A stretch of 64,000 nt of DNA from Saccostrea echinata (Eukaryota): NCBI RefSeq assembly GCF_033153115.1, contig NW_026889759.1, positions 7,130,001-7,194,000 on the forward strand, given 5' to 3'. Below the pieces are notes generated by a model. The model was not told the origin of the DNA. It made no database searches and saw only the letters and a program-made list of their open reading frames with translations. This document shows, piece by piece, positions 1,607 through 61,355 of the stretch; position 1 is the first letter of the stretch; each line of letters starts with the position of its first letter. The translations under genes and the position numbers were made by a program.

Positions 1607-4600
1607 TCAACTTGGAAGTGGTCTCAGATCTGGCTGTACAAATCTGTAACAGGAAAATAAATAAAACCTATGTTTGAGAAAATGAACACTTACAATGGGT
1701 CTATTCAAAAATTTTACTTTTGAAACACTCAAGTTAAAATTACATGTTCTACATTAAGGAAGCTCTAAACACTGATGAAAAATGTTTTTCTGGCTGTAAG
1801 AAAATTTGATCATATATAGGTATACATACTGAGTTTATTTAGTTCATTTTCAACATAGGGTACCTGTCATATTTTTCCAGAAAAAAAAGTTCTCAGACAA
1901 TAGTGAACAGAAATTCCATTCGGAAAATACATGCAAATAAAGTTTTCAATTTATACTAGATCAAGATAAAGTACTTTAATCTATATCAGATTGTGTCATT
2001 ACATGTACTGTACATTTCCCTTTTCCCCAGTTTACATCAAAGGGCAGATCTCTAACTGCAAAAAACTACCATAGAATTAGGACTCTGTCACCAGTGTTTA
2101 GAGCTTCCTTCATTCATGAATCACAAGTCGAAAAATTTGTCAAAGCAAAAGGCAAGGATTATGATAACTTTCCAATATCTTCATAATATCAATTACTATA
2201 CAAAATCCAATATCATAGATAGAGATCTACATATCAACTGTAACTTACTGGTGTCTGGCAGTGTCTGAGTACAGATGTTTATGGGAGTAGTATTGTGCTA
2301 TAACGGTCTTGTCAAAGAGGTATGGGTTTCTGTCTACAAACTCCTCAAAAGTGTTAACTCCAGGGGACTGCTTAATGGCATGTGCTACCTCCGCAATGTA
2401 GAACATGGTTATAGTTTCATGGTATCCAAACTTTACCTTCAATTTAAATTTGCTATTTTAGTGAAAAATTTAACTAAATAAAGGCACATAGTATAATTTT
2501 TTTAAAAAAGTCAATATGACCTGCTTCTTGCGATTCGTATACTTGAACATTTTAAGAATTGCAATTTACTGTGAGTAATATTTTCAAATTATCACATGCA
2601 TAATGACTTAATTTTTATGGTATTCAATTTATATAATTAGTAACTACATGTATAAGAAAATAATTTAGATACAGAAGATCTTCAGAGGTACATGTATTTG
2701 TAAAAACTGGGATTAAACATTTGCAGAAATTTTACATATTTTATATAATTTAAATATAATGCCATCTTTAAAAAATTGTTTGTTTGCCCTCCCCCGACCG
2801 ATTGGCTAAAATTGGCCTGACCCAAAACTTTTTTTTAACCTCCAGGAAACGATAATTTTTTTCATTTCATTTTGGAATATTTAAATTTTATTTTTATATA
2901 TTTTGAAAATTCAGCATTGATGTTAAAATTTTCTTGGGAAAGAAAAAATTTCCCATCTACCTACTGACCCAATATTTTTACCCTGAGTCAGGAGAGGACA
3001 AACAAACATTATTTTAAAGATGGACTTAAATACCTTTTCTTTGTTTTGTTCATTAAAATGCTGAATACCCTGCCTGGAAAAAAAAAGAAAAAAAATCATA
3101 TTTCAGAAATTTAAATATGAAGTACAAGACATTTATGTACAAGTTAAGTATTTTAAGTCCACATACCTTATGTGTGGTGTGGCTGCCTCTTTGCCATATT
3201 CTGTGATGTAATTCCAGGCCATCCTCAAATGTGCCTCATGAGTCCAATCCTCAAAAGGCAACGTGGCATCCTCAAATGCTTGGATAAATATTTCATCTCC
3301 TACAGATCTAAATGATCTACAAGTAACACAAAATGTAATATTGATAGCTAATACACAATTTATGAAAATTTAATAAGACATTAAAAAAAAATAGCAAAAT
3401 AGATCTCATTCATTTATTAGAAATCTTTCTTAAAAATAGTTCATTCATTTATTAGAAATCTTTCTTAAAAATAGTAAATCATGATTCCTAGCACATGTTA
3501 CATTTCAAAGAACATACCATAGATACATGTAAATTGTTTGTGTATTGTTACACATGGATAGAAAAACACAATCCTTATGTGCCAACAGAAACAAACCACA
3601 AATTCTACTGTGTTTTCTTACCTTATATAGTACAGGAGAGGGTTGTCCTCTGACTCATTAATTTCAGCATTGACCACACCCCCATACCACACATGGTGGT
3701 CGCCTACAGTGTGTACTGAATGGGCACGGCACTCCATTACTGCAGCACAGTCAGAAATTATTGGAACACCCTGTATTAAAAATGTCAGATATATACAACA
3801 ATATTAGAATCAGCCTGTATTTCCTTTTTTTTTTTTTGAAATTTACAATAATCATATCGTAATACATCATTGGAAACCCACGGCCAGTCTCGCATACGCT
3901 TATTGACTGGTCAATAAGCGTATGCAAGATTGGCCGTGGGTTTCTGCCAATGACCCAAATATTAAACTAGATGTACCTATAAAATATTTATTTGAATCAA
4001 AATCTGACTTACAAGCATAACATGAATGGTTCAATGCAGCTGCAGATCAGTAGCTCACTGGTCTGGCAACCAGAGAGCTACAGTGCCACCCCTTGGAAAA
4101 AGTGTGTATTTATTGCGCACAAAAAAGAGCAGTGTTTCTCAATTTATTTCTAAGTATATATAAAAATATTACTAACTGTGTGTTCCTAACATATTCTTTT
4201 ACTACTTCCACAACAAAACTGTATGTACAAGTCATGTACGAAGCGTGTTGGACCGAATTGTCTTTCCACCCAAGACGGCAGTATAAATATGTGAAATTTT
4301 CGATGGTCTCAATTTCAGGCCAGGAGGGCTACCGTACATACTCGCCTATAAGTAAGTTTTTTGGGAGTTAAACTTGGCTCCAGAACTCTTTATCCGACTT
4401 ATACGCGAGTTATAAAAGAGAATGGTATTTAAACCGGTCAATCCCTCTAACTGAAGCTTAAAAAATAGAACCGACTTACAGGCGGACCGACTTATAGGCG
4501 AGTATATATGGTATTTACAATGGTTGGGGGAAATGTTTTATTGTGGAAGTAGTGAAAAAATGTTAGGAACACACGATTTGTAATATTTTGAGATGGTAGT

Positions 4601-4900
4601 TTAAATATACAGAGAATTTTAAAAAATTGAGAAACAGTGCATTTTTTTGTGCACAGTAAATATACACTTTTTTCAATGGGTGGCACTGTAGCTCTCTGGT
4701 TGCCCATCCCAATTTTTCCAGATCAGCGAGCTACAGATCTGCAGCTACTAGGTTCAATGCTAAGAATTTTATTTGTGCAATTGCATACAATTAATTTTTG
4801 TGCACTTACTTCATTTGTCTGTGCATGGGGAATTTTCTTGAACTGACATTCTTCTGTTTCCATATGTTTTGCAAATTCTACACCATACTTTACCTGTCAA

Positions 4901-4934
<34 letters not shown>

Positions 4935-7414
4935 CAATCATTTACACACAAACAATCTTTTGGTTTTTTTTTTTTTTTACAAATTTTTTAACATTGATTA
5001 GTTCATACATACTTTACATGTTTACTTTGGAAGTACTACAATTTTACTCAGAGAGTCATTAATTACCATTATGTATTACAAAGGGATCACATCATTATTT
5101 ACCTCAGTTATACACTTGTACACTTTTAGTAGGGCTGGGACAACATATCGAAATACTGATTCTGTGTGAGGATATATCAATACACGTGTAAAAGTATTGA
5201 AATGGAAAACAAAATTTCAAGACTTATTTTTTTCTTTACTTTACTTGACACTTCGGTTTAAAATAAATATTTTAAATACAAATATTTAACAAAATGATTA
5301 ACATCACTTTTGTTAAATAATTTTGTTTTGCAACAGATATTCAGCTACTATGAATATTGTAACGAAACCGAGGGTATAAGGTTGTTACTTAATCAGTTAA
5401 TCGTGGGCCGCTGTTGGTTTCTGGTAACTGGTCAAGGTTGAAATGGTTATCCACAAAGTTTATATACAATCGGAATAATGACCAATTTTTGGTCCACTGA
5501 ATAATTGGCGAAATGACCAATTTTTAGTTCACTATAATATCTGCACTAGAACCGTGACGAATAACACGTTGTAAAGTTTATGATATTTATTAAGACGATC
5601 AAATGGTTCAATTATAAGCACAATGATAAACTTGGTTGGTACAACGTTATTTTGTTAATACAAAGATGACGAACCAATGGTCAATCCAGGACGTTTCTAC
5701 TCTGAATGACTCTTCACTAATGATTTCGTATACATAGACTTGGTACCGTTTGTACATACCACTGTCTTACACCCGAAGTATACGGAGTCGCAACCCAATG
5801 CAGACTGACTTCTAAACACAAAACAGCTGATTTTATAGACAAAAGTTGTTATGATGACGTATAAACGTCAGATACCAATAATGTCACAATCAATATCTAA
5901 TTTGTAAGTTAGCGGGTTTTGACCACTAAAATTACTTAATAACGTTGTACCTATATAGAACATATACAACATAACGCTTTGTAATTACAATACATAAATC
6001 AAATTGATAAAGTTCAAATAATAAATCATTGTTCAATTCTTTCGTTCATTGTTCATTGACAAATATTTTAGTAGTTTATACACATCGGGTTCAGGGTCCG
6101 TTTATTCGGAACTTGTCAACAACAGTTAATCCGAATTTCACAGGTAAACTTAGCGGAACGTAACAATATATTAATCTTATTTGAGAAGAAATATAATATG
6201 TTTATATTGTTTATTTCAATATAAAATGAACATTTGAAAAAAAAAAAACAGTTAAAAATACTGTGATACATACTGTATCATAGCACAAATATTGTGATAC
6301 ATATCGATACAGAAAAGGTGTATTGTCCCAGTCCTATCTCTTAGTCAGTTTTTCTCACCTGGTTTTGCTTAAGCACATGGATGGCAAATTTTTGAGTTCT
6401 TAACAGCAACTCATGCATGTGACTACAATGAAAAGGATTTTTTTTTTAAACTGAGTTAACTGACTATTTACAATTCCTCAAACTGAAGTCCCATCAAAAA
6501 GCTTTAGTTTTTCTTTATTAACAAACAGAGCACTGACAGTATGGAATACTGGTACCTTGGATTGTTGATACAGAAGGAGACAATGGGAGGATGGTAGGAG
6601 ACATTGGTAAATGATGTACAAGTCATTCCTCTCTTTGACCAGCAATCTCTCAATATGTCATACTCTCCTGCAGTCACAACTACCACTGAGCAGAAATGGA
6701 GCAAGGAGTTTTTTAATTAATTGATTTGTTCATATTACACTTGCAAGCATTGTTGCCAAGAAATGTACAGATGTTAGTTACATGCACTTATTGACTTACC
6801 ACACTGAGGGACTTTTCCCATTATCTTTTTGTAGTTTTCTGCTGTGTGGTGATCTTCTAATGAATTAAACTTTGAGGATACTGTAAGCATGAAATATGTA
6901 ACTTCATATAATTACATAACTGATCTATGATTATGAACATAATGAAAAAAAAAACCAGTTAATGTAGCAATAATACTATAGTTGTATGTTTGTTTTTAAT
7001 AAGAATCACTTTCATTACAGCAAGTAAGTTTTTTAAGTACATTAAATTGGTATACAGTGCATAGGCTATACTCTTCTGTATAAAATATTATATTAATTTA
7101 TTATTCATGCTATATAACAGCCAAAACAATTAAGTACATGCACTGATCGATCAACACCCAACTTGTGAAATACTGGTCCCTCAACAGAGAAATCCCTTAT
7201 AAATATTTCAGCATGAATGATACTATCATTTTTAGGCACCAGATATATTTTTAAACTATATATTATTGATTTTACGAGATTTAAATTTCTTACCTGAGGA
7301 TACACCTCTGGAACCCCCGCATCTGCAGCACCTTTCAGACCATCCTCTCAATATTCCTTGGTCTGTCAACCCCAAAGTCCTCCCCAGTTTTGACACTAGT
7401 CTAAGATGTTTCAT
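1607..7414 (-). CDS. Flavin reductase-like (RutF/HpaC/DIM6-NTAB family) domain fused to an uncharacterised C-terminal His-motif domain; 10 coding exons, 347 aa, possible mitochondrial presequence
   Basis: Exons (minus): 7414-7294, 6880-6800, 6685-6556, 6422-6359, 4893-4810, 3770-3622, 3316-3167, 3073-3034, 2436-2249, 1643-1607. All introns are GT-AG and phase-consistent (1044 nt). Reductase motifs: KIMGKVPQCVVVVT..GMTCTSFTNVSYHPPIVSFCI..FAIHVL..Q and GVPII.DC.AVMEC..GDH.VWYG.V..PLLY. C-terminal domain: FEDATLPFEDWTHEAHLRMAW..YHETIT..YYS..ARHQFVQPDLRPLPS. Confidence 0.88.
1755..2111. mobile_element. Non-autonomous DNA transposon (MITE), Kolobok/piggyBac-like TTAA target, in intron 9
   Basis: TIR AAGGAAGCTCTAAACACTG / CAGTGTTTAGAGCTTCCTT; TTAA at the left end, TTCA at the right. 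Confidence 0.6.
2760..3029. mobile_element. MITE with imperfect TIRs, in intron 8
   Basis: CCATCTTTAAAAAATTGTTTGTTTG at the left; CAAACAAACATTATTTTAAAGATGG followed by ACTTAA at the right. Confidence 0.5.
3873..3944. repeat. Near-perfect ~70-bp palindrome (hairpin MITE remnant)
   Basis: GAAACCCACGGCCAGTCTCGCATACGCTTATTGAC-TG-GTCAATAAGCGTATGCAAGATTGGCCGTGGGTTTC. Confidence 0.75.
4037..4751. mobile_element. Long-TIR (~180 bp) MITE, Mutator-like, containing a nested Tc1/pogo-type MITE at ~4330-4513
   Basis: 4037-4215 is the imperfect reverse complement of ~4540-4747. GGTTCAATG occurs on both flanks (possible 9-bp TSD). Inner element TACCGTACATACTCGCCTATAAG...CTTATAGGCGAGTATATATGGTA has TA ends. 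Confidence 0.65.
5130..6336. mobile_element. hAT-like MITE in intron 4, hosting a solo LTR
   Basis: TIR TAGGGCTGGGACAA / TTGTCCCAGTCCTA; degenerate 8-bp flanks ACTTTTAG / TCTCTTAG. Confidence 0.65.
5358..6165 (-). mobile_element. Solo LTR (Ty3/Gypsy-like), 808 bp
   Basis: TGTAACG...CGTAACA termini (TG..CA with short inverted repeat) and a 4-bp TSD ATAT on both sides. On the minus strand a TATA-like CTATAAAA (~5831-5838) precedes AATAAA (~5586-5591). Confidence 0.7.
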
Positions 7415-7865
7415 TGTTCTTTCAGTAGATAAAAGAAAGTTGTGAAATAGCAGTGTAAAAATCTTTTTGTGAATTTCCTTTACAAACCGAGGAAATCCGG
7501 GATGAATATTTTTTGATTATGTGTCAACTTGAATAAAGTCATATGTAATATAAATGTATATAAATTAATACAAAGATTTGCGTGCATTTAAATGATATAC
7601 TTACAGTAAAGCTGTGTAAAAGAGGCCGGTAAAATATTATTAAAAAATACTTTTACATAATAATAATATTTCTTCCTTCATGGGTACCTCGATCCCGATG
7701 AAAATGTAGTAGGCAACAATATTGCTCGCATATTAGGACGCAGAAGAACCAATACAGCATTTCAACTACTTATGTGATAAAATTTTCTAATTATGAGTAA
7801 TTCTTATTATTTTATTGCCAGAAAGGCGGTGGGTGGTAGGCCTATCATTTTTTCCATTAAGTTTT

Positions 7866-7937: not shown

Positions 7938-7994
7938 AGAAACAAAGAACCACAGCATAATTTTACACAGATGTAACCTATCATATCATTAAAC

Positions 7995-10021
7995 ATGCCT
8001 ACAGCAAGCCAAGCAATGATAGTTATGAGCGGAGAGGGAGAGGATCCAAGAATACCACGAAGGAGATACAACGGAGAGACCGGAGCCTTCTCTGTTGCAA
8101 ATTACGATATGGAATTGGCTATCCGTTTGAAGAACATTGGATTCTTAAATCAGGGAATTTCTGGTACCGGATTTTCGGACCAAATTCCAGGAAAATATAC
8201 AAAGATGAAAGGACTCTCCACAAATATGGGTACATATGATCCAGTTAGAAGGGTCTATCGTTGGGAAGTGTCTAATTCACACACAGAAAGACGGCCGCAA
8301 ATAAGAAGTAGTGACACTAACACAACGGAAAACATTGTATGGTTCCCAAAAAGAGAGCGCGTGGATAAGAGGCATGACTTAACAGGAAATTTATTGCCAA
8401 AACTCAGTGGGAAATCAGGTAGCACTCCAAATGTCACGTTAGAGGATTTGGGATTTCGAAGGAGAAAAACTGTAACAAGAACTTCTGCTCATCCTAAGAG
8501 TGGAACATCTCTTGCATCACTTGGAACAAAGTTTGTTCTGTCTCCTAACGAACGCCACACAGTGTCCATAGAGAGTGTTTACGAAAAGCCTGAGCAAGAA
8601 ACACGAGTAGGGGACTCCTTGGAAAACCCAGTGAAAGAGACGTGAGTTATACTTATCAACAAATTACTATACCTCTATATATATGATATACATGTAAGTG
8701 ACTATGGTATATGATAAACATGTAAGTGAACAATTCGATTGGTATACTCATGCATCACAGATTAAAGGAATTTGCACTACGTTGAGCAGGATGAACATGC
8801 ATTTTATTTTTGAGAATGTTCTTATCACGTACATTTGCAATAACTCCTGTAGTCTACTTTTTAAAGAAAACTTGATGCAGTGTTACCCCATTACGGATGT
8901 CACTTTGAACAAGTCATTATACTTTTTCCAAATACAATTCAATTCCATTCTAATTCTACCCCCTTCTCCTATCACCACCACTACCACAGTGTTTACAAAT
9001 ATAACAGTCAAGCAATCCAAAAAAAAAATCTACAAAAGCAATAAAAGCAATAAAAGCAAAAATATTTTTTAAAAAAATTAGTACCTGTTTCAAAATCTCA
9101 AAAGGGTAAAATTTTGGAAAAATAAAAATATATTTAGTACAACAGAGAAGTGTATACATAATAAGTGCAAACTCATTTTCAGTAAAGATACGAAATTTAC
9201 ATATTACATGTATTTACGTTTCTATTTCATTCCTTTGATATTGAATGATCTATTCTGGTATTTTAAAATCAATACAAATACCAAATAAATAATTGTTAAC
9301 AAAAACATTTTTAAAGTGTTTTCAACATTGAATTAACACAATATTTCATCAATGATCATATATTTTTGAAATCGATCGACTTTATTGTTAAAGGAACAAA
9401 AACATCAAAAATGTCAATATTTAAATAATATATGGAAAACTTCCAAAAGGATTTCACAAGTGAAACATCATAATTGCAATTCAGTAGTGTACGTAATTGA
9501 AATATAGTGTTCAAGAATCTCCAACTTCTTCTTGCAGACCAAAACCTCAAAAGCTTTCATTACTGGAAGATGTAAAAAGGACGGTGAATTACGACAGCCG
9601 AGTCCAACCGGCGATGTACATGCGCAAAAACCGCCCACCACCGAATCCGTTCGCAGTCTGTCTTAGCTTCCGGGAAAACGATGATTACACCCACACCGAT
9701 GTCAGAGACATCCTGGAATCGCAGCTTGGTCTCAAAGTCCGCTCTGTTCAGTATGATCCTTTGTCGATCCGCTCATCGGATCCGGATGTGGGAACAAGGT
9801 GGATCGTTACGTACGCTACTCCGGCGGAATGTGAGTTCGTGGTCAGCAAAGGTGTAGAAGTGAATGGGGATAAAATAGCTATAAAGCTGCTAGACGACGT
9901 TATTAATTGTGAATGTGAGGCATACGCATTGTACAGAGAGGATGAGAGACAGAAAAGGATTGACGAGGGGAACCGAATGATTCGAAAAGAGAGAAAAAGG
10001 AAGAGGAGACCAAAAGATTGA
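7995..10021 (+). CDS. Uncharacterised 2-exon gene (376 aa): disordered basic N-terminal half plus a C-terminal RRM-like alpha/beta domain and basic tail
   Basis: The stop codon of ORF 7995-8645 lies inside a GTGAGT donor (exon ends 8641, phase 2). Acceptor CTCCAACTTCTTCTTGCAG ends at 9537 in the same phase and joins ORF 9538-10021 (1131 nt total). An alternative same-phase acceptor ends at 9507. The C-terminus RKERKRKRRPKD is NLS-like. Confidence 0.7.
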
Positions 10022-12345: not shown

Positions 12346-12833
12346 CGAATTGTATGTTGTTCAACATCCCATTCGAGAATTTTTCACTCATATAAAGATG
12401 TCATCTGCCTCACGTCGTAGCTATGGGAAATATTCTGCGGGACCTTAGTATCAACTTAATATCTTGGATGTAGGGATGATAATAGCACATACTTTTGTTC
12501 CTGTTTCATATGTAAATATGCCACCATGGATATGACAAAGCTCCATTTGAAGTTTTGATCAATATGTCTGCTATGAAATAGGAATCAATATATGTCTCTT
12601 GTTCAAAACATTAGTCTAGATTTCCTAATTCTATGAGTCAAGGTATGTTTTATCCTAACTTTAAGTTGACAAGGCCTTGTTTATGTCGATTTTTTAAAAA
12701 TATTCTGTAATCTCTTTATCTTCAAAAATGCCTATCGTACATCCGGTCTTTTATTCTAAATTAGAGCATTGTGTTGTAGGTGCTATATATATTGATAAGA
12801 ATTACAAGAACCGAAAGTCGGTTTTTCCAAAAT

Positions 12834-13481
12834 ATGAATTCCAAGTGGCTGATAATCGTGTTATTCGTCACTTTGTTTGAAATCATACTTGCTCAACAAA
12901 ACTTCCTACTTGTGGACTCCTGTCCCCAGGACAAAACAGAATGGGATGTCAGACGAGTAAACAAGAGTTATAAGGATCCACCCGATTATCATTGTGCTGC
13001 AATAGAATCAACACAGGAGTTTGGAGAAATTTGTTCATATTCTGCTTTGACATTACCTGGACATTGTCCTGTACTTAATGCTGTATCTCACAATCTCGAC
13101 TTCAAAAATTGCACTTCTTATAAAGAATGTTCGCAAAAAGCATATAGATCGGACGAAATTTACAGGTATTCGATATGTTTCTCAATATTTGGCCGTAATC
13201 TGTCAAATGAAGTGTCATATAACAAGAAGCTTGATGTGTCGCAAGGGAGTGTGGTAGTTTATATATGTGTTTCTAGTATTGCAGTACTAACTGGTTTCGT
13301 TATCTTGCTTGTCTTTATTAAAAGAAAGATAAATAGCAAGAAAAATAGACATCTATCGGATGCAAATAGAAGATTGAATGTGGACAAAAACGTCGACAAA
13401 ATTTTAGGAAAAGCCATTGAAGATATAGAGCTTTCAACACTTCAAAGCCATGCACTGGCTATAGAAGGGAATCAATCATAG
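12834..13481 (+). CDS. Type-I membrane protein, Cys-rich ectodomain family, paralogue 1 (215 aa, single coding exon)
   Basis: ATG at 12834; signal peptide MNSKWLIIVLFVTLFEIILA; ectodomain VDSCP..EW..YHC..EIC..GHCP..NC..EC..YRS.EIY.Y..CF; TM VVVYICVSSIAVLTGFVILLVFI; stop-transfer KRK; ~53-aa tail. Confidence 0.8.
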   Translation: MNSKWLIIVLFVTLFEIILAQQNFLLVDSCPQDKTEWDVRRVNKSYKDPPDYHCAAIESTQEFGEICSYSALTLPGHCPVLNAVSHNLDFKNCTSYKECSQKAYRSDEIYRYSICFSIFGRNLSNEVSYNKKLDVSQGSVVVYICVSSIAVLTGFVILLVFIKRKINSKKNRHLSDANRRLNVDKNVDKILGKAIEDIELSTLQSHALAIEGNQS

Positions 13482-15580: not shown

Positions 15581-16121
15581 TCCTGTTATTTTCTCAGAAT
15601 TGGTCCAGTTATTTTGTCGTAATTGGTCTCACAAGTAAAAAAAATCTCTCTAGGTAACTCTAGTCATTTCTAAATGTACTATGACAAAAATGCTCAAAAA
15701 TCTTAAATTCAGGTTATATCTATAATGCTAAAACAGATTATATCCTTCTTGTAATTAAATTCTTTTGTTTTCCACCTGCAACCTTTTCTGGCTTAGCAAA
15801 CGTAGTTTTTTACCTGTCTTTTTTCCAAAAAATGTTGGCTAAGTGGGAAGACAACAGTCAAAATATTTATCAATATGAATAATGGGTCTGCATAAGATTG
15901 CTAAATCACGTTCAAAATAGAAGTATCAATAGATTCTTGATTGTTTCAAGGTGTACTAACTTTACTTTGACAAGACCTTGTTTGTGTCGAATTTTTAAGT
16001 TTTACCTTCAAAATTACAATTAAATTAGACCTTTACTTTGTGTTATAAGTGCTATTTCGAGTTACAGGTAATGATCAGGAAGCGAAAGTAGGGACTTCCA
16101 AAACATGGTGTACAAGAGATA

Positions 16122-16700
16122 ATGCTTTCAAAACGGGGAATTATTTTAATCGTAACTTGCTTTAGAAGTGTAATCATACATGCTCAACAAAATTTTCTAC
16201 TCGTGGATTCCTGTCCCCAGGACAAAACAGAATGGGATACCAGACGAGTAAACAAGAGTTGTAGGGTTCCACCTGATTACCACTGTGCTGCAATAGAATC
16301 AACACAGGAGTTTGGAGAAATATGTTCATTTTCTGCTTTGACATTACCTGGACATTGTCCTGTACTTAATGCTATATCCCACAATCTTGACTTCAAGAAT
16401 TGCACTATTGATGAAGAATGTCCAAAGAAATCATATAGGTCGGACGAAATTTACAGGTATCCGTTTTGTTTCTCAATATTTAAACCTCGCAAGTGGCCAA
16501 ACATTCCAAATAACGAGGCCGGTGTGAAGGGGAGTATAATTATAATTGTCACCGCTGTAGTTTTCTTCTGTATAACTGTTACTGCTACAAGCGCCATGGT
16601 TATATATTTTATGAGAAAGAGAAATGCAAGTAAAACAGATTCTGAAATACTACTACAAGTACTCCATAAAAAGCAATCTGAGTGCACTTTGCAGCTCTAG
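16122..16700 (+). CDS. Type-I membrane protein, Cys-rich ectodomain family, paralogue 2 (192 aa)
   Basis: Signal peptide; all 8 ectodomain Cys; TM IIIIVTAVVFFCITVTATSAMVIYFM; RKR; short tail containing DSEILL. Confidence 0.8.
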   Translation: MLSKRGIILIVTCFRSVIIHAQQNFLLVDSCPQDKTEWDTRRVNKSCRVPPDYHCAAIESTQEFGEICSFSALTLPGHCPVLNAISHNLDFKNCTIDEECPKKSYRSDEIYRYPFCFSIFKPRKWPNIPNNEAGVKGSIIIIVTAVVFFCITVTATSAMVIYFMRKRNASKTDSEILLQVLHKKQSECTLQL

Positions 16701-22210: not shown

Positions 22211-22542
22211 AGATGTAGCAAACTTTTCATTTGAAGTTCTGATCAATATGTTTTCAAAGAATCTAGATATCTTTTTCAAAATAGTGCAGTTTAGATTTAT
22301 GGATTCTGTGACTCAAGTTGGGTTTTTAATTCTTAAGATTAATTTAACAAGGTCTTGTTTGTGTCGTTTATTTAAATATTCTTTTTTTACCATCAAAAGC
22401 ACAATTACTAGTATATCCGACCTTTAATTATATGAGTTCGAGCTTTGCGTTGTATTTGCTATTTAAATAAAACGGAGAATCATTGGAATAAGATGTAATT
22501 ACACAAAACAAAAGTAGTGTGGTTTTACGGGATCCAGGAAAA

Positions 22543-23126
22543 ATGCTTTCAAAACGGGGAATCATTTTAATTGTAATTTGGTTTGGAAGTGAAATCATAC
22601 ATGCTCAACAAAACTTTCTTCTTGTGAATTCCTGTCCCCAGAACAAAACAGAATGGGATACCAGGCGAGTAAACAAGAATTGTAAGGATCCACCCGATTA
22701 TCATTGTGCTGCCATGGAATCAACACAGGAGTTCGGAGAAATCTGTTCAGATTCTGCTTTGACATTACAAGGATACTGTCTACTTAATGTTGTATCTCAC
22801 AATCTGGATGAGGGATGTCCAAAAAACATCATATCGTTCGGACGAAATTTAGAAGTATCCGTTTTGTTTCTCAATATTTAAGCAGAGTAATGAGTCGAAC
22901 AAAGTGCCAAATAACAAACATTTATTGGGGGTTTGATGATCATCATTTTGGTTTGTATCGTTATAGTTACAGCAATAATGTTATATTCTTTTTGAGATAT
23001 TAAAGAAAGAAACAAAACAAGGAAAATCATGGACCTCATGGAGAAATCGCCGGTCAGCCCTCATTAGTACAAGCCAGCGAAGACAGAGCAGAATATATGC
23101 AACATTTGCAACCTGTTTCTTTCTGA
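22543..23126 (+). pseudogene. Receptor paralogue 3, pseudogene
   Basis: Signal peptide and first half of the ectodomain are intact. Lesions: a 3-nt and a 21-nt deletion, +1 A in the run at 22821-22826, TAC>TAG at 22850, and further frameshifts. The TM remnant FIGGLMIIILVCIVIVTAIML (from 22921) and the tail RKKQNKENHGPHGE..EYMQHLQPVSF* lie in different frames. Confidence 0.8.
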
Positions 23127-24797
23127 AGTAAAAATATTTGTACTACTGAAGAAGAAATAGTTGAGTAAATATTTGTTATAGTTTAGTTGTATCAGATGCC
23201 TACTGGGAATACATCTGACCCGGCAAACACTCGTTCAAGTAATGTTAATAAAATTAACCACCTTCTAATTTATGCATTGTCTATAATTTTCTGTTTCATA
23301 GTTTCTTTCGTAAGGTATTAAAATAAAATTTATGTATGCTTTCTATTGTCTACTGGATTGAAATCTGATGATAAACCTCCTTTTTCTTCTTGCAATGGAA
23401 AATTATTCTTAATATGTTTAATTTATAGTATATTACAGTACCATTCTTAGTGATTAGATATTCGTCCCGATTGAAGTGGTGTAGATTATTTTTACGATTG
23501 ATTGAAATGTACATGGTTTTAATTATCTTATGTTTCCGAGTTTATTAAGGCTTTTATCGATGGACAACAATTTTAACATTAAAGAAATACCTGCGGGGAC
23601 ACAGACGGAAGTGGCCAGTAATGCGTCAGGCATCCGAACTGCCACATACAATATAGATATTAGTATATAAAAGAGTTCTTTGACAACAAATAACAAATTG
23701 AATGACAAAATGACATATGTTGAGTAAATTACAATCTGTGAAAAGTTTTGATAAGATAAACATGAAAGAAAGATAAATAAAATAATTACCTGAATGTTTC
23801 TATATGGTATAACAAATTAGTGATAGGGGTTAACACTTTAACAATTTGTAGTATTCAGTATTTCGTAGTCTGACAATAAATAAAGATTAAGAATTAATCT
23901 CGGTGAAAATAACTGATAAAACATAATTAAGTTCAAAATAAAAGTTCAAAATAAGATTTGTAAAAAGAGTCAACTCTGCACGGTGATACATTGTAAAACC
24001 TTTTAAATTGCAACCATATTCTGACCCTCGTTGCCATTGTAAAAAAAAAGTTTTACAAAATCAGACATAAAAAATGATAAAAGATGATGTAAGGCATGTA
24101 CGTTCATGAGATATTATAAATAATACTATTTTTACTTCTGCACAAATCCATATAAAGTAACTGTTTTGAAAGAATTAAAGAACATTTCATATTTTCTCCA
24201 TAATTCTTGCTAAGATTTTCACGTCTTCTGACGAATTAGTGTTTTAGAGATTAATGTTCTTTTTGATGTTCAATGTATCTTAAATAAAATTTATTCTAAA
24301 CAAAGCATATGATCATTTATTATCATTCATGGAAATTTGAATCGGAATACAAGAAGTAAGCTAATCCTCTATATCCTTATGTATACTCCCTCTCTTGCCT
24401 TGGTATTCCCAAACTGAAAATTAACATTTTTAAAAAAGGAGAGGTTCCTTGGAATGAAAATACCAGGTACCTTAACCAAATATTCTAAGACATATGTGCT
24501 TTCGTAAAGCATTTCGTCATATACAAATAGGCCCGCAAAAAGATTACTAGCGTTCAAAATACAATGGTGCAGATTGTTCTGTTTCTATGTAGCAAGGTGG
24601 GTGTGTACTAACTCTAAATCAGCAGAATCTTATTTATATGAAATTATCACGTTTATCAGTTTGATTTGTAGGTGCTATTTTTATATACACGTATAGGTAG
24701 CAGGAACCGAAAAAAGATTTCATTAGATTTTTTTTTACCATAATTTTTCTTCGTTTAAATGATAGTTGTGCCGATTCGTGTGACAAGAGATGAGATA

Positions 24798-25373
24798 ATG
24801 CCTACAAAAGGGGGAATCGTGTTAATTGTCACTTGGCTTGTAAGTGAAACAATACTTGCACAACAAAACTTTCTACGAGTTGATTCGTGTCCAGAAAACA
24901 AAACAGAATGGGATACGAGAGGAGCAAACAAAAACTGCACTGATCCACCCGATTATCACTGTGCTGCAATAGAATCAACACAGGAGTTCGGAGAAATCTG
25001 TTCACATTCTGCTTTGACATTACCTGGATATTGTCCTGTACTTAGTGCTGTATCTCACAGTCTGGGCTTCAATAATTGCACTTTGGATAAAGGATGTCCA
25101 AAAACATCATACCGTTCGGACAAAATTTACAGGTATCCGTCTTGTTTCTCAGTATTTAAGAGCCACCGGTCGAATGTACAAGATAACGCCACAATTCATT
25201 TCACCGTGATTTTGACTATTTTTGGCAGTTCAATAATCAATATTCCTATCATTATCATCGTGTTTATACTATGTAAAAGAAGGGCAAGAATACGAGCATT
25301 AGACAGTAATCAAAGAGAAACGCACAAAAAGGAACTTCAAAATACACACACAGGACGTAAATTAGTTGATTAA
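24798..25373 (+). CDS. Type-I membrane protein, Cys-rich ectodomain family, paralogue 4 (191 aa)
   Basis: ATG at 24798 aligns with the paralogue starts (MPTKGGIVLIVTWLVSETILA); 8 Cys; TM FTVILTIFGSSIINIPIIIIVFIL; KRRAR; ~33-aa tail. Confidence 0.8.
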   Translation: MPTKGGIVLIVTWLVSETILAQQNFLRVDSCPENKTEWDTRGANKNCTDPPDYHCAAIESTQEFGEICSHSALTLPGYCPVLSAVSHSLGFNNCTLDKGCPKTSYRSDKIYRYPSCFSVFKSHRSNVQDNATIHFTVILTIFGSSIINIPIIIIVFILCKRRARIRALDSNQRETHKKELQNTHTGRKLVD

Positions 25374-31123: not shown

Positions 31124-32833
31124 CTATTTGAGGTACTCAAAAACTCTTATTTTACTGCTGACTTGATCAGCCACCCATAATCTGTCTTTGTTATCTATAC
31201 AAACTCCATGTGGCCAAACCAGTTCATCTCTCTTTGTAAGTAGATATCGAAGAAAATATCCATCCTTGTCAATGATGTGAATAGTGGCGTTTTCTCGATC
31301 TGCTATTAAAATATTTCCAAGACTATCTGTTGCAAGATCACATGGAAAGAATTTCCAGAATGTGCTCAGCCAAGAGTAACCACCTTCGTAGACGAATCTC
31401 TCCTTATTATATCTGTCTACGACAATCACTTTCTGAGAGATGGCGTCAGAAATGCATATATCATTGTTAATATTCAGGCAGACACAAAATGGTTCAATTA
31501 AATATTTGTGAGTGATTTCGAGTTTAAGATGCCCTCTTTCGTCATATTTCACAACCTTCCCCCCAGGGCAATCTTGCAGACAAACAATGACGTCACCGGA
31601 ACGCGTGGTACATATGCCAAGAGGTCGACCATTTGTGCGGAAAGCGACATTATCGATATTATCAGGACTGACTTTTCGGATACATTTGTTCTTGTTATCC
31701 GAATAAAATATGCCCCCTTCTCTTGTAGGTGCCAATCCAGATGGATATCCAATCCCAGTAGACGTGGGAATTGCACAAATACGCTTGCCTCCTTCATTTA
31801 CAACAAATATGTCCTTTTGTTTGCCACTAAGTAGGAATTTTTGAGAATGAACATACTTTACGAAATACATATCGGATACACTGAATTCAAATTCAAACAA
31901 GCACTTTGGAAAAGGCAGAACTTTTCTTTCCTCCTGCTGCTCCTCTTCTTGGCTTGGAACGTATTCTTCCGGTTCTGCAGATTGGTTTTCCTGTTTTTCT
32001 GTTGACTCTTCCACTGACTGTGTTATCACGGACGGCAAAAAGGACCCAAATTGCCATGTTATATGATCTTTGTTAAGAAACCCTTTTTGGAAAACTGGTG
32101 GGGTGAAACCCAAGATCTCAGACAAATCTGAAAAGGTAGCATCCTCAGGGTGATCTTTTATGTAGAAAATGAGCTCTGTTGGATGAGCAATCATCTTACT
32201 TCTGTAGAATCCCAAAATTTCATCCAAAATTGAACTCTGTTCATTCATTTCCTTTTCGTATTTTTCTATGTCTTCAATGTCTCTCTTCTTATTAGCATCG
32301 ACCAACTCTATTGTTTCCTCAAAAACTTTGTCCACTAGTTTTTTGAAAGCTTCTTTTTGCTCAATAGCCTGGTCCCTTAATTGACAATATCCCTTTTTGA
32401 TATCATTTTTAATGGATTTCAGTTTTGACAGACGTTCTTCAATCTCAGGTTTGAGAGACGCCTTTATTTTCATGTCATCCACAGCAATCTTTTTCATACA
32501 TTCTTCGAACATGCTTTCCATGCTACAAAGAGTGTGCTTTGCATGTTTTTCGCCAATACACTCATGACATACTGGGATCCTACACAATTTACAGCACATG
32601 GTGTATTCCTTGCACGGATGATCCAGACACATTTGAGGACCATTCATCTTATATATCATCGAAGAATATTTAATGATTTGGTGATGAGAGTAGGAACTGT
32701 TTTCAACGTGTTCCTCTGCGCATTTTGAACAAAATTTGTTTTTGCAATGTGTGCAATAGCGTTCCACAGGTTTCTCCTCACAGTGGATGCACCGCAAGAT
32801 GTCCTGGGCTTCAGGTGGCACGCGTTGATCCAT
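31124..32833 (-). CDS. RING-less TRIM-like protein: two B-boxes, coiled coil, NHL/beta-propeller repeats (569 aa, single coding exon)
   Basis: CIHCEE..YCTHCKNKFCSKCAEEH..H and CLDHP..CCKLCRIPVCHECI..H..H B-boxes; heptad region; NHL-like PxGI/ICISD/NILIAD/LWVAD repeats. Acceptor TTACAG lies just upstream of the ATG. Confidence 0.9.
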   Translation of the reverse strand: MDQRVPPEAQDILRCIHCEEKPVERYCTHCKNKFCSKCAEEHVENSSYSHHQIIKYSSMIYKMNGPQMCLDHPCKEYTMCCKLCRIPVCHECIGEKHAKHTLCSMESMFEECMKKIAVDDMKIKASLKPEIEERLSKLKSIKNDIKKGYCQLRDQAIEQKEAFKKLVDKVFEETIELVDANKKRDIEDIEKYEKEMNEQSSILDEILGFYRSKMIAHPTELIFYIKDHPEDATFSDLSEILGFTPPVFQKGFLNKDHITWQFGSFLPSVITQSVEESTEKQENQSAEPEEYVPSQEEEQQEERKVLPFPKCLFEFEFSVSDMYFVKYVHSQKFLLSGKQKDIFVVNEGGKRICAIPTSTGIGYPSGLAPTREGGIFYSDNKNKCIRKVSPDNIDNVAFRTNGRPLGICTTRSGDVIVCLQDCPGGKVVKYDERGHLKLEITHKYLIEPFCVCLNINNDICISDAISQKVIVVDRYNKERFVYEGGYSWLSTFWKFFPCDLATDSLGNILIADRENATIHIIDKDGYFLRYLLTKRDELVWPHGVCIDNKDRLWVADQVSSKIRVFEYLK

Positions 32834-34786
32834 TTCCTGTAATTAAAAATCAATATGTACACGTAGTTTATAAGACTTACAAAAGATTTTTTGTAAACTC
32901 GTCTGAGCTAAAAGGTTGCTATCGAAATCTGTACGTTCCATCCGTCATTAATATGTGTACTACATGTTTTTGACTTCTTCCGAAATATACGTATTCTTTA
33001 GATTCAAATTTGCTTAAATCTTGGTCCTATCAAGTAGAAAATTTGAATTTAATGCAATATTTATAACATAATAACCTGCTAGGATTGAAAATAAAAATTT
33101 ACAACATAACCTACTAGGATTGAAAATCAAAATTTACTACATGATTGTCCTTAAAAGTGTATTTTAAACAACAAGACATAGTTAGTTGACATAAGAATAA
33201 CAAAAAACACAGAAAAAATGACATGAGAGCACTCAGTCGTAGTTTGTTCAAATAATGTGAGAAAAAGGTAAATCATAACAATGCTATGACTTTCAATAAC
33301 GAAGCTACGACTTGTTGAACTAATGAAACAGGTTCCTCAAACTTGGGACAGCAATAATATAATGTTAGGGATAAGGGATTTACTTGTGTGCTAGAGAGAA
33401 AAAAAACTTTTTGTTGCTCTGTTAAGATCCGCCACTTTTTTAGGTGGATCTGTCACTAGTTAGCGATGTACATATATACTGCATGATGCTTCGTGTTTAA
33501 TGGTTAATCGTGTTAAGGTCCAGACACCTCTGTCTATGTAGATATGCCAATGTATTATGCTTATATGGGGGATTACGGATTGCATCATTAACTGTCGGGA
33601 AATATCAAGAACATATAGCTATTTACTAACATGGCAGCACGGATTAATAATGTTCAAGAGAGCATAACGATTCAATCAATAAATTTGACATTTTAAACAG
33701 TCATTTTAAATTGGTTTTGAATTATTTACGAAATACTTATATAGCCAGATTGACAGAAATATGAATATAATTTCCCCCAAATTAAAATATTTAAATTATT
33801 GTATGATTAATAAAGTTACCTAAGTGTTCGTCAATGAATACAGATGTGGAAATGTACCCTGTTTTCTTATACGTTCTGCAAGATTGCACAGGAACTGGGC
33901 AAGGAAAAATAACTCTTGATAATTACATGTGGTAGCATGCTACATTAAATTTTTAATTTCATTTCATATACATGTAGTTAATAATGGGTCTTGAATAATT
34001 TTATCCAGGTACGTACGTAGTATTGGGGGGGGGGGGGTCTCTTGTTGATACTGAAAAAAAGAAGAAGATGCCTTTAATTTTTTACTGTTAATTTATGAAT
34101 ATATTTTTGAATCCTCCAAATGTTTATATATCCTATAGAAAAAAATATCTGTTATACAAAAAAGTTGAGACCTATCCCACAACACATCCACAAAATATTT
34201 ATTGTAATATTTTTATTTTCCTGTCTTGAGATAATAATAATCAAACTTAGCATGAACTCTATTGTAAGACTGGTATAGCTAGGATATTCCAAATAAAACC
34301 GTCTTGAAGCGAAAAGAAATGTTTGATTTTTTTTTCTTGTTATACAATTTCATTGCATACTATCATATTTAATTATTTATTTATTTTATGTATTTATTTC
34401 AATATTTTCAGTTTTGTTTTAAAACTATATATATATTTTTTAAATCAAACTAGATGCTTCTGTTTGTTCTTGTTGTTTTAGAGAACAGCTGTACATATGC
34501 AATCTTATTTTTTTATTTGTATAAAGGCGTTGCATATTTCCATTCAGTACTATGTCGGCTCCCCCCCCCCCCTTTCCAGTCTCTCTCTTCCGGTAAAATA
34601 TATCAAAATATAGTCCCTGAGAACAACATAGAGTTATTATCAAAATCAGATTTAAAGAGTATTTGTGTTTTATCTCCCTTTTTACTGCAGAAAATATTCA
34701 TGTAGTAAAAAAAGAAGTTAGATTATGATCAATGCCTTCAAGAAATGGATTGCGCGCATGAATATATTACTGTCAAGTATTACATA

Positions 34787-59333: not shown

Positions 59334-61073
59334 CTACTGGAGATACTTAAACACTTTCACAGTGTTAGTGAGCTGCCCTACGTAAACATTATTGTCATCA
59401 TCTGCACATACACTACGGGGAGATTCTACTCTTTGTTGTTTTGAGAGAAGATAAGACAAAAACTGACCATCCTGGTCAAGGAGGTGAACTCTATTACTGA
59501 ATCCATCACACACAAGGATATGACCCAGGATATCAGTACAGATTCCGTAGGGCCAGATACTTGACTCTTGACCTGTGTATGAGAATCTATGTTGTCCTGA
59601 TTTATTCACCACTACGACTGCCTCTTTAGGATAATCTGATATACAAATGTCTCCATTGATGTTTTCTGTGATGCACCGTGGTTCACTGAACAGTTTCTGA
59701 CCTTTGTCATCCCTCTGTATGTTTTGTGTTTCTGTTCCTGCTTTATTGTACCTGGCTACTTTAGCCTCTTCTTTGCCATAGTTTATCATCCCCACCAGTA
59801 TGTCCCCATTGATGTGTGAGAAGTATATGCTAACTGGTTTCCAATCTCCTGTTGTAAAAAATGTTGATATTTTGTTATTCATTTCTATTCTTTTAATAAG
59901 CTTGTTGGTTTGGTCTGTAAAGATTAGATCCCCCTCCTCTGTGACAGTGTGGTAACCATGTCCACCACTAGTTCTTACCCTCTGTAACTGATTACCCTCT
60001 CGGTCTGTTTGGACAAGATTGCCACTATAGTCACTGACCCAGAGTCTGCCTGATTGATCTAATGATATATGGCAGGCACTACATACGCCTAGTAAATTGA
60101 ATTCCCTGACTTTAGTGACACAGGAAGAAAGGGAAATTGTTTTTGTCACATCAGACTTCATATATCTGTCTTGTTCTGACTGTTTTCTTGTAGATTTCGC
60201 AGACGCTGAGGATGGAAAACCTTCCATCGGCTTTATTTTTCTCATCTCTTCCCTTGCCTCTTTAACACTTATTTTACCAAACAATTTAGAAACATCATCT
60301 TTGCTGTATTGACCAGCAGTAAATACTGGAATTGCTGGTTTTGATGTCTCTGGTATATTTCTGATTTTCAGATTCTCTTCTGAAATTTCTGGAATTAAAA
60401 TTGTGAGCTCTGTTGAGGAAAGGAATCCTTGAAATTTTTTGACAAGGTCATTGAGATAGTTCATGTAATCTGTAAACATCTGGCCCTGGTTCTTTAATTT
60501 TTCATTCATTGTATACTCTATTTTGTTTAGTATTTCTGTATTTTCAGCCAATACTTTATCGACCGTGTTTTTGAGAGACTCAGCTTCAACCTTCATTGAT
60601 GTCCGTATGCTCTCCATGATCTTCTTTATTTCTGTTTCATCCCGTTTAATTTCTCTTTGTAGATCTTGTGACGTAGGTAGAAAATATTCATGGATTTTAT
60701 AGATTCTCTCTTGGCATAGTGTAAACTTTTCTGCATAAATTGTCTCTAAACCAACGAATTTATGGCCTCTGTGATCTTGCACTGTCGTACACTTAGAACA
60801 TAAAGGAATATTGCATTCAACACAGAGAATATTTATTTTCTTTGTCTGATGAATCTTGCATTTCTCCACCGGAAGTCGTCGTTTGCGTTGTTGGTATAGA
60901 ACAACGTGATGGTTCTTGTTTTCTGCACCTTTCAGATGTTGGTTTCTGCATTGATTACACATCCGTTGATGGCAAGAATTGCAATAAAATTCACAGTTTG
61001 TCTCACAGTCTTCAGTGTCGCACTCCAGAAAGTGTTGGGCAGTTCCTGGTATACTGGGTTTGAATATCGCCAT
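59334..61073 (-). CDS. RING-less TRIM-like protein: two B-boxes, coiled coil, NHL/beta-propeller (579 aa, single coding exon)
   Basis: ATG at 61073 directly follows acceptor TTTCAG. AQHFLECDTEDC..CEFYCNSCHQRMC..C..H and CKIH..CVECNIPLCSKC..H.GH B-boxes; C-terminal PRCITENINGDICISD, PYGICTDILGHILVCD, VHLLDQDGQFL. Confidence 0.9.
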   Translation of the reverse strand: MAIFKPSIPGTAQHFLECDTEDCETNCEFYCNSCHQRMCNQCRNQHLKGAENKNHHVVLYQQRKRRLPVEKCKIHQTKKINILCVECNIPLCSKCTTVQDHRGHKFVGLETIYAEKFTLCQERIYKIHEYFLPTSQDLQREIKRDETEIKKIMESIRTSMKVEAESLKNTVDKVLAENTEILNKIEYTMNEKLKNQGQMFTDYMNYLNDLVKKFQGFLSSTELTILIPEISEENLKIRNIPETSKPAIPVFTAGQYSKDDVSKLFGKISVKEAREEMRKIKPMEGFPSSASAKSTRKQSEQDRYMKSDVTKTISLSSCVTKVREFNLLGVCSACHISLDQSGRLWVSDYSGNLVQTDREGNQLQRVRTSGGHGYHTVTEEGDLIFTDQTNKLIKRIEMNNKISTFFTTGDWKPVSIYFSHINGDILVGMINYGKEEAKVARYNKAGTETQNIQRDDKGQKLFSEPRCITENINGDICISDYPKEAVVVVNKSGQHRFSYTGQESSIWPYGICTDILGHILVCDGFSNRVHLLDQDGQFLSYLLSKQQRVESPRSVCADDDNNVYVGQLTNTVKVFKYLQ

Positions 61074-61355
61074 CTGAAAGCAGCACAGTATGAATATACC
61101 TTCCATACATATTTGAAAAACTACACGTGTATTTATTTTGAATTTTAAAAAATGAGTTTACTAAGCTAAACAATGTCGTAAAACTTTGAATCACAGTCAA
61201 AACGTGACCAACTTAGCACACGAATAACATGAATAAATTCTTGAGACTATTTATAATCATTTTGTTAAAAAGGCACCGAGTACACATATAAGGTATATGC
61301 TATCCCGAAAGCCTGCAATCATTCATTAAATTGGCTTTAATTTAAATGACACAAG

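Follow-up and report, generated by a model that had tools for sequence, protein, structure and literature searches.

A stretch of 64,000 nucleotides (nt) from the oyster Saccostrea echinata (contig NW_026889759.1, positions 7,130,001 to 7,194,000; hereafter the window) carries on its minus strand, at window positions 1607 to 7414, a gene that joins an HpaC-type flavin reductase domain to a C-terminal domain of an unnamed family, which we call the orphan domain. The gene is real and is expressed as a single spliced unit. We tentatively favor, at somewhat less than even confidence, the reading that its product is a mitochondrial, Coq12-like flavin reductase for the head-group chemistry of coenzyme Q (CoQ), in which the C-terminal domain would be a ligand- or metal-binding accessory and not a dedicated flavin acceptor.

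The ten coding exons join to 1044 nt, which translate from start to finish into 347 amino acids (aa) and a stop codon, with no internal stop, and all nine introns are of the GT-AG type. The clean ten-exon, 347-aa gene described in an earlier note, which was made from the DNA letters alone, is thus upheld, but its extent is not complete, since in two of four sequencing runs a further upstream exon is joined to the first coding exon. If this upstream exon is joined in frame, a stop is met before the ATG, and we therefore take it to be 5' untranslated. The parts of the gene, all on the minus strand, are as follows.

7605..7700 (the 7700 end provisional), minus: upstream exon, read as 5' untranslated
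7419-7604, minus: intron upstream of coding exon 1, CT..AC joint 7418/7605 in two of four runs
7294-7414, minus: coding exon 1, aa 1-40, basic and acid-poor N-terminus, predicted mitochondrial presequence, spliced joint
6800-6880, minus: coding exon 2, aa 41-67, end of the leader and first helix of the reductase domain, spliced joint
6556-6685, minus: coding exon 3, aa 68-110, SxxPP motif (SYHPP, 6585-6599), PF01613 at E=7.8e-7, spliced joint
6359-6422, minus: coding exon 4, aa 111-132, gene model and contigs
4810-4893, minus: coding exon 5, aa 133-160, gene model and contigs
3622-3770, minus: coding exon 6, aa 161-209, GDH motif (3696-3704) and end of the split barrel, PF01613 at E=1.1e-12
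3167-3316, minus: coding exon 7, aa 210-259, short linker followed by the first part of the orphan domain, HEAH (3229-3240; H236, H239)
3034-3073, minus: coding exon 8, aa 260-273, splice model, orthologue alignment and a contig loose end
2249-2436, minus: coding exon 9, aa 274-335, YHETIT (2407-2424) and YYS motif
1607-1643, minus: coding exon 10, aa 336-347 and stop, FVQPDLRPLPS

The evidence for splicing comes from contigs of four public runs (at most three samples from two studies), whose RNA status is a tool's guess; no run is on record as RNA, and the spliced contigs served for joints only. In 4/4 runs they skip introns 1, 2, 3, 5, and 6 at the predicted CT..AC ends, and the exon 6/7 joint, which lies between the two domains, is likewise present in all four. 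One contig per run spans exons 1 to 7 and then enters exon-8 sequence. The intron-4 joint is not listed among the contig joints, and the record coordinates are compatible with its splicing; the frame of exons 8-10 rests on splice signals and full-length orthologues. A single transcript thus crosses the domain boundary, as the claim of one fused gene needed. The possibility that the two halves are separate genes was ruled out by the exon 6/7 joint together with the finding that 47/47 near-length hits (of 204 candidates) are fused. Exon 9 has one match in its own genome and is 97% identical to a protein of Saccostrea cucullata (P0001), with Crassostrea and Ostrea next. P0001, which matches the oyster protein at 154/161 positions of the reductase domain and 128/133 of the orphan domain, was used as its stand-in in searches and folding.

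The reductase domain (about aa 54-214) belongs, by its sequence and its modeled fold, to the PF01613 HpaC-like family and is a predicted flavin reductase. Exons 3 and 6 of the window each pass PF01613 alone, P0001 scores 134.8 bits against a cut-off of 27 over profile positions 1-152 of 153, and the whole profile is matched in 4/4 oyster orthologues at 123-135 bits. The motifs by which HpaC-family proteins are defined, (S/T/C)xxPP and GDH (PMC11795597), are present as SYHPP at aa 97-101 and GDH at aa 183-185, and they are kept among 61 fused domains (S97 58/61, P100 61/61, P101 51/61; G183 61/61, D184 60/61, H185 60/61). In Foldseek, the full-length P0001 model has the split beta-barrel expected of the family and matches HpaC-family reductases at E of about 1e-14, with 108 matches at E<=0.001, including SgcE6, C1, CtcQ, and PheA2. 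The split-barrel motifs first read from the letters, GDH included, are therefore intact. Eight NCBIfam models, among them the named equivalogs HpaC, RutF, FerA, HsaB, and StyB, match P0001 below their cut-offs, at 38-97 bits against 200-340; the top score is for FerA, with 97 bits far under the cut-off of 260. In an exon-wise search of the oyster genome, the only two PF01613 matches found were exons 3 and 6 of this gene. The best PDB sequence match is 4l82 (E=3e-18), from Rickettsia felis, a weak hint of an alphaproteobacterial source for the reductase domain.

The orphan domain (about aa 215-347) is marked by WTHEAHLR at 234-241, YHETIT at 278-283, and the tail YYS..AR..FVxPDLxPLP at 322-346. 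A profile built from four members gathers 3929 clusters at E<=0.001, and bacterial loci as well as fungal fusions are among the relatives, which bears out the earlier proposal that this part is a distinct, conserved domain with kin in bacteria and fungi. The domain occurs in 8/201 and 25/301 sampled bacterial genomes of two groups. Its sequence has no match in the PDB, and no Pfam or NCBIfam family is common to more than 2 of 65 members. The model of member P0006, which is 55% identical to the P0001 domain, is all-helical and has a predicted local distance difference test (pLDDT) score of 91.8. Against the PDB, this model returned 0 Foldseek matches at E<=0.001, and VIA-align gave Z scores of 4.0 and 5.4, within background, the better of them for a saposin-like protein (root-mean-square deviation 3.0, 76 aligned). 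No oxygenase family or fold, acyl-CoA-dehydrogenase-like HpaB or other, was matched by Pfam, NCBIfam, Foldseek, or VIA-align. For a model-based comparison, such a missing match falls short of proof of a new fold. ESM Atlas returned hypothetical proteins only, at 0.76, and its single-exon query returned noise. One viral match to the domain model was seen in BFVD, to A0A6N1P216, an uncharacterized 295-aa Tupanvirus protein (E=6e-6, template-modeling score 0.68 by query). No relative was retrieved when metagenome contigs were scanned with P0071 and viral contigs with A3. We found no description of the domain or of its reductase fusion in the literature searched, most subscription papers being outside its reach.

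The best 150 representatives comprise 89 single domains of at most 200 aa, 20 reductase fusions, 19 tandem proteins, and 22 with other domains. The Pfam partners in the 65 longer ones are GNAT (9), Arf GTPase (8), and HEAT (2), with single cases of NUDIX, GrpB, GidB, glyoxalase, and DUF2306. A second eukaryotic fusion, an Arf GTPase followed by two or three orphan-domain copies, was seen in Rotaria, Bryopsis, Alphamonas, and Pigoraptor (proteins including P0118, P0139, P0170, P0176, and P0200); the second copy is often without H239 or E280, and a branch (98/98) sets the six sampled Arf-fusion rows apart.

Across 294 domain rows, the most conserved residues are H236 (290), H239 (282), T281 (287), T283 (291), P340 (278), and D341 (267). 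H279 is present in 267 of these rows and is Asn in 20; at position 280, E predominates and is most often replaced by H (13) or D (8). As 80 of the 294 rows were chosen by motif patterns, these figures are inflated. In 32 bacterial loci collected without patterns, H236 and H239 are each 32/32; H279 is found in 13 (Asn 18, Ser 1) and E280 in 11. H279 is also absent from 13/66 fused domains, largely chytrid and ichthyosporean, which have Asn or Ser instead. Judged by these alignments, HxxH and TxT alone are near-invariant, and a three-His site is not a family invariant, because H279 is so often Asn. The proposal that HxxH and the YH histidine act as ligands therefore stands only in its first half: HxxH is near-invariant, and the YH histidine is Asn or Ser in 13/66 fused domains and 19/32 pattern-free loci. 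The label "His-rich" does not fit, with 9 His in the 133 aa of the orphan domain versus 10 in the 161 aa of the reductase domain. Coupling analysis (294 rows, effective number of sequences 237) ranked W234-N267 first, N267-G277 6th, H279-R334 21st, and H239-E280 23rd, which suggests that HEAH, YHET, and R334 lie close together, an indirect form of support for the closeness proposed earlier. The domain probably has one conserved pocket. In a Bacteroidota subgroup (L105-L124), F-N-x-T replaces Y-H-E-T, and the gene often stands tail to tail with an RNA methyltransferase gene (PF04452).

The 47 near-length fused hits come from bivalves, gastropods, a chiton, Lingula, and Branchiostoma, and more distant fusions are found in Creolimax, Phycomyces, Calcarisporiella, and five chytrids. 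In a tree of 58 rows (a subset of 259), a branch with support of 95/88 sets the fused C domains, together with two eukaryotic fragments, apart from the rest. A smaller tree of 28 rows separates animals from fungi with modest support (86/94), other rows lying among them. Identity back to fungi is 59/133 to 65/131 in the orphan domain and 62/158 to 63/155 in the reductase domain. The GDH-to-WTH spacing is 51 residues in both the oyster and Branchiostoma, and the linker is gap-free in the orthologue alignment. These sequence comparisons are most simply read as a single fusion event no later than the opisthokont ancestor. A recent transfer from bacteria to animals was ruled out, because the named fungi and Creolimax carry the fusion too and the grouping in the tree is broadly that of the species. 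Nor is the fusion specific to animals; it appears to be an old opisthokont inheritance shared with chytrids, Mucoromycota, and Creolimax. Vertebrates, insects, and Dikarya are absent from the hits collected, no search having been aimed at losses.

The first 30 aa of the oyster protein contain 4 R, 2 K, 1 D, and 1 E, with a helical moment of 0.85 at aa 5-15. Among proteins with a long enough leader, we scored the first 30 aa as presequence-like if they had at most two acidic residues and a net charge of at least +2. This composition was found in 43/51 fused proteins versus 213/1260 internal windows (17%), in animals and fungi alike, though the leader sequences are unconserved. Mitochondrial import, which the earlier note had proposed, is thus likely for the fused protein, on the strength of a composition test rather than a targeting predictor.

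The earlier note had further proposed that the orphan domain accepts electrons or reduced flavin from its neighbor, and the gene context of stand-alone bacterial members bears on this. In the best 80 of 264 bacterial loci, PF01613 was found in 0 of 78 upstream and 76 downstream neighbors (0/154) and in none of 15 long domain-bearing open reading frames (ORFs). A mollusc-only reductase profile also found 0/80, though it recovered just 4/7 control reductases at E<0.001, and the scan was therefore redone with a broader profile. This placed a reductase in 2/80 loci, both Crocinitomicaceae, 3.9 kb off and beyond opposite-strand genes. For 32 further loci with 1.5-kb flanks, the broader profile found no reductase, and PF01613 was in none of the 56 neighbors (of 111) that were scanned with Pfam. 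A conserved bacterial operon was ruled out, the commonest neighbor families reaching 7/80 loci. One of these is an Lrp/AsnC regulator directly upstream of the stand-alone domain in seven loci (L004, L008, L026, L029, L046, L047, and L064); in five of the seven, both genes share a strand and the regulator abuts the domain gene. In bacteria, a reductase-acceptor pair thus lacks Rosetta-stone support, because reductases are absent beside the orphan domain in these loci. With no adjacent reductase, mostly non-redox fusion partners, a variable H279, and a characterized analogue, Coq12, described without such a domain, the acceptor role is not supported.

In the scheme that we tentatively favor, the HpaC-type reductase domain would be imported into mitochondria and, as a homodimer, would use NADH to reduce flavin, with the His of GDH positioning the nicotinamide. 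The reduced flavin would then be released to a partner for aromatic-ring chemistry of the CoQ head group, as proposed for Coq12, and the HxxH / TxT / R-K pocket of the C domain may bind a metabolite or a divalent metal, gating the reaction or serving a neighboring step. The first part draws on what is described for HpaC-type reductases, namely a homodimer, a GDH histidine that positions nicotinamide, and reduced flavin that is passed on to a partner (PMC11795597). The conserved motifs, the fold match, the presequence-like leaders, the single PF01613 gene in the genome, and the Lrp/AsnC gene flanking 7/80 loci are consistent with this scheme, and the stand-alone members and the GNAT and Arf GTPase fusions fit a portable binding module. 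Several points weigh against it. The oyster leader has two acidic residues in 30 and is without a scored cleavage-like pattern. The two domains are equally well conserved back to fungi, which would also suit a catalytic role for the orphan domain. In the part of the Coq12 paper available (PMC10279924), the sole measured activity of Coq12 is NAD+ reduction with an unknown substrate rather than flavin reduction; the "orthologues" are BLAST-derived and include bacterial HpaC and RutF; Coq12 is 244 aa long, and its description there has no such C-terminal domain.

Alternatively, the gene may encode a two-component enzyme in one chain, in which reduced flavin or electrons would pass to a metal site (H236, H239, and E280 or H279) that activates O2 or reduces a substrate; the orphan domain would then be the very partner whose absence was noted for S. 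pombe Coq12. We consider this quite unlikely. It draws support from a fusion that forms one clade (95/88) spanning fungi and animals, in which the two domains are conserved to the same degree, from the near-invariant HxxH with mostly E, and H or D as the commonest substitutes, at position 280, and from couplings that bring the motifs near each other. Matches to HpaB, luciferase-like proteins, and Trp halogenases are also lacking in the oyster genome, three blank searches that are weak because genome searches work exon by exon. In addition, Coq12 made in E. coli was inactive, from which an absent partner was inferred in the available text of that study (PMC10279924). The bacterial loci speak against such a pairing (0/154 adjacent genes, 2/80 loci from one family at 3.9 kb, 0/32 further loci), as do the pattern-free loci that keep H279 in 13/32 and E280 in 11/32, the mostly non-redox fusion partners, and a domain of about 133 aa that matches no known oxygenase fold. 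Class D oxygenases are far larger than this. We give a still smaller chance to the related proposal that the orphan domain is a metal enzyme of new fold (HxxH plus E/H), inherited from the ancestor of the opisthokonts, and the missing partner of Coq12-type reductases in general. If this were true, invertebrates and early fungi would have a one-chain mitochondrial enzyme for an unsolved p-hydroxybenzoate or quinone head-group step.

It is also unlikely, in our estimate, that the C domain instead senses a metabolite and represses or activates the reductase, whose flavin would serve general mitochondrial needs outside CoQ. The reductase C1 (5zyr, 5zc2), which has a C-terminal extension, is among the best structural matches, and the orphan domain is carried by Arf GTPases and GNAT enzymes, often in tandem, with many tandem copies lacking H239 or E280. 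The second domain of C1 is MarR-type and controls the reductase upon metabolite binding. Pfam, NCBIfam, and fold searches, however, show no MarR-like character in the orphan domain; most of its members stand alone, which is commoner for small enzymes than for sensors, and no effector is known. Finally, the two halves may have independent activities, a FerA/CobR-like reductase of ferric iron, cobalamin, or flavin and an unrelated small enzyme, fused for co-targeting only. The FerA model gives the top NCBIfam score (97 bits, cut-off 260), bacteria show no gene-context link between the domains, and the P0001 monomer model has a predicted template-modeling score of 0.58 with a low-confidence linker. 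Nevertheless, that linker is short, its length does not vary among the animals checked (51 residues from GDH to WTH in the oyster and Branchiostoma), and the fusion is kept in 47/47 near-length hits, which leaves this explanation improbable.

The reason to weigh these readings is that an unnamed family of about 3900 clusters is here linked to a testable phenotype at the organism level, CoQ and p-hydroxybenzoate in the S. pombe coq12 mutant. Rescue of the coq12 deletion by the fusion, with or without its C domain, would give the family its first function, and it would open a little-understood part of CoQ synthesis in eukaryotes to study.

Other features of the window were noted. Intron 5 holds an element resembling a miniature inverted-repeat transposable element (4038-4746) with inverted arms at 4065-4148 and 4621-4704 (89%), whose inner repeat has high contig depth, and a hairpin with 35-bp arms lies at 3873-3944. 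A repeat-like stretch in intron 4 (5360-6170) is matched by many diverged contigs. Near the 5' end of the gene are divergent neighbor ORFs at 7977-8645 and 9497-10021 on the plus strand, the first without a Pfam match. Four tandem paralogous ORFs follow on the plus strand (12780-13481, 16092-16700, 22492-22881, and 24759-25373); judged by eye, the third seems truncated, and they begin with a signal-like segment and also contain a Cys-rich part and a hydrophobic stretch. Two long ORFs on the minus strand (31124-32842 and 59334-61157) have the look of B-box / coiled-coil / NHL-repeat proteins.

Among known systems, the bacterial HpaC/RutF/FerA reductases (ThdF, SgcE6, PheA2, and 4l82) share the split barrel, SxxPP, and GDH with the oyster domain. 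Unlike them, the oyster gene has introns, a leader, and an extra domain, and no HpaB-type partner was found in its genome. The p-hydroxyphenylacetate hydroxylase (HPAH) reductase C1 of Acinetobacter (5zc2/5zyr) resembles the oyster protein in having an HpaC-type reductase with a second, C-terminal domain in a chain of about 300 aa. The sequence similarity to C1 is confined to the reductase, however, and no MarR model is matched by the orphan domain in Pfam, NCBIfam, or the fold search. DinB/YfiT and questin oxidase-like proteins are helical metalloproteins with three histidines, and we offer them as analogues, given that the orphan domain is also small and all-helical with conserved histidines; unlike them, it gives no Pfam or fold match to these proteins, and its third His is often Asn. 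Three candidate sources were set aside on the parts consulted: BLVRB belongs to another family (PMC9923487), E. coli SsuE serves as a reagent in PMC12833800, and the text of PMC12363795 has nothing on motifs. No evidence for a rhodoquinone link was found in a literature listing.

The closest characterized analogue of the oyster gene is S. pombe Coq12 (SPAC1071.11), a mitochondrial PF01613 protein of 244 aa (PMC10279924). According to the sections of that paper available, its deletion brings CoQ down to about 4% and is rescued by p-hydroxybenzoate, Coq12 being needed upstream of that compound; the protein made in E. coli is inactive, and the authors infer an absent partner. Apparent orthologues are listed there in Mollusca, Annelida, and Hemichordata and none in mammals, and the extra domains given for them exclude the orphan domain; Coq12 was also not found in diplonemids, according to the part of PMC12699882 available. 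Like Coq12, the oyster protein has PF01613 behind a predicted mitochondrial presequence, and we would therefore regard the gene, by analogy, as Coq12-like and as a natural candidate for the molluscan entry among the Coq12 orthologues.

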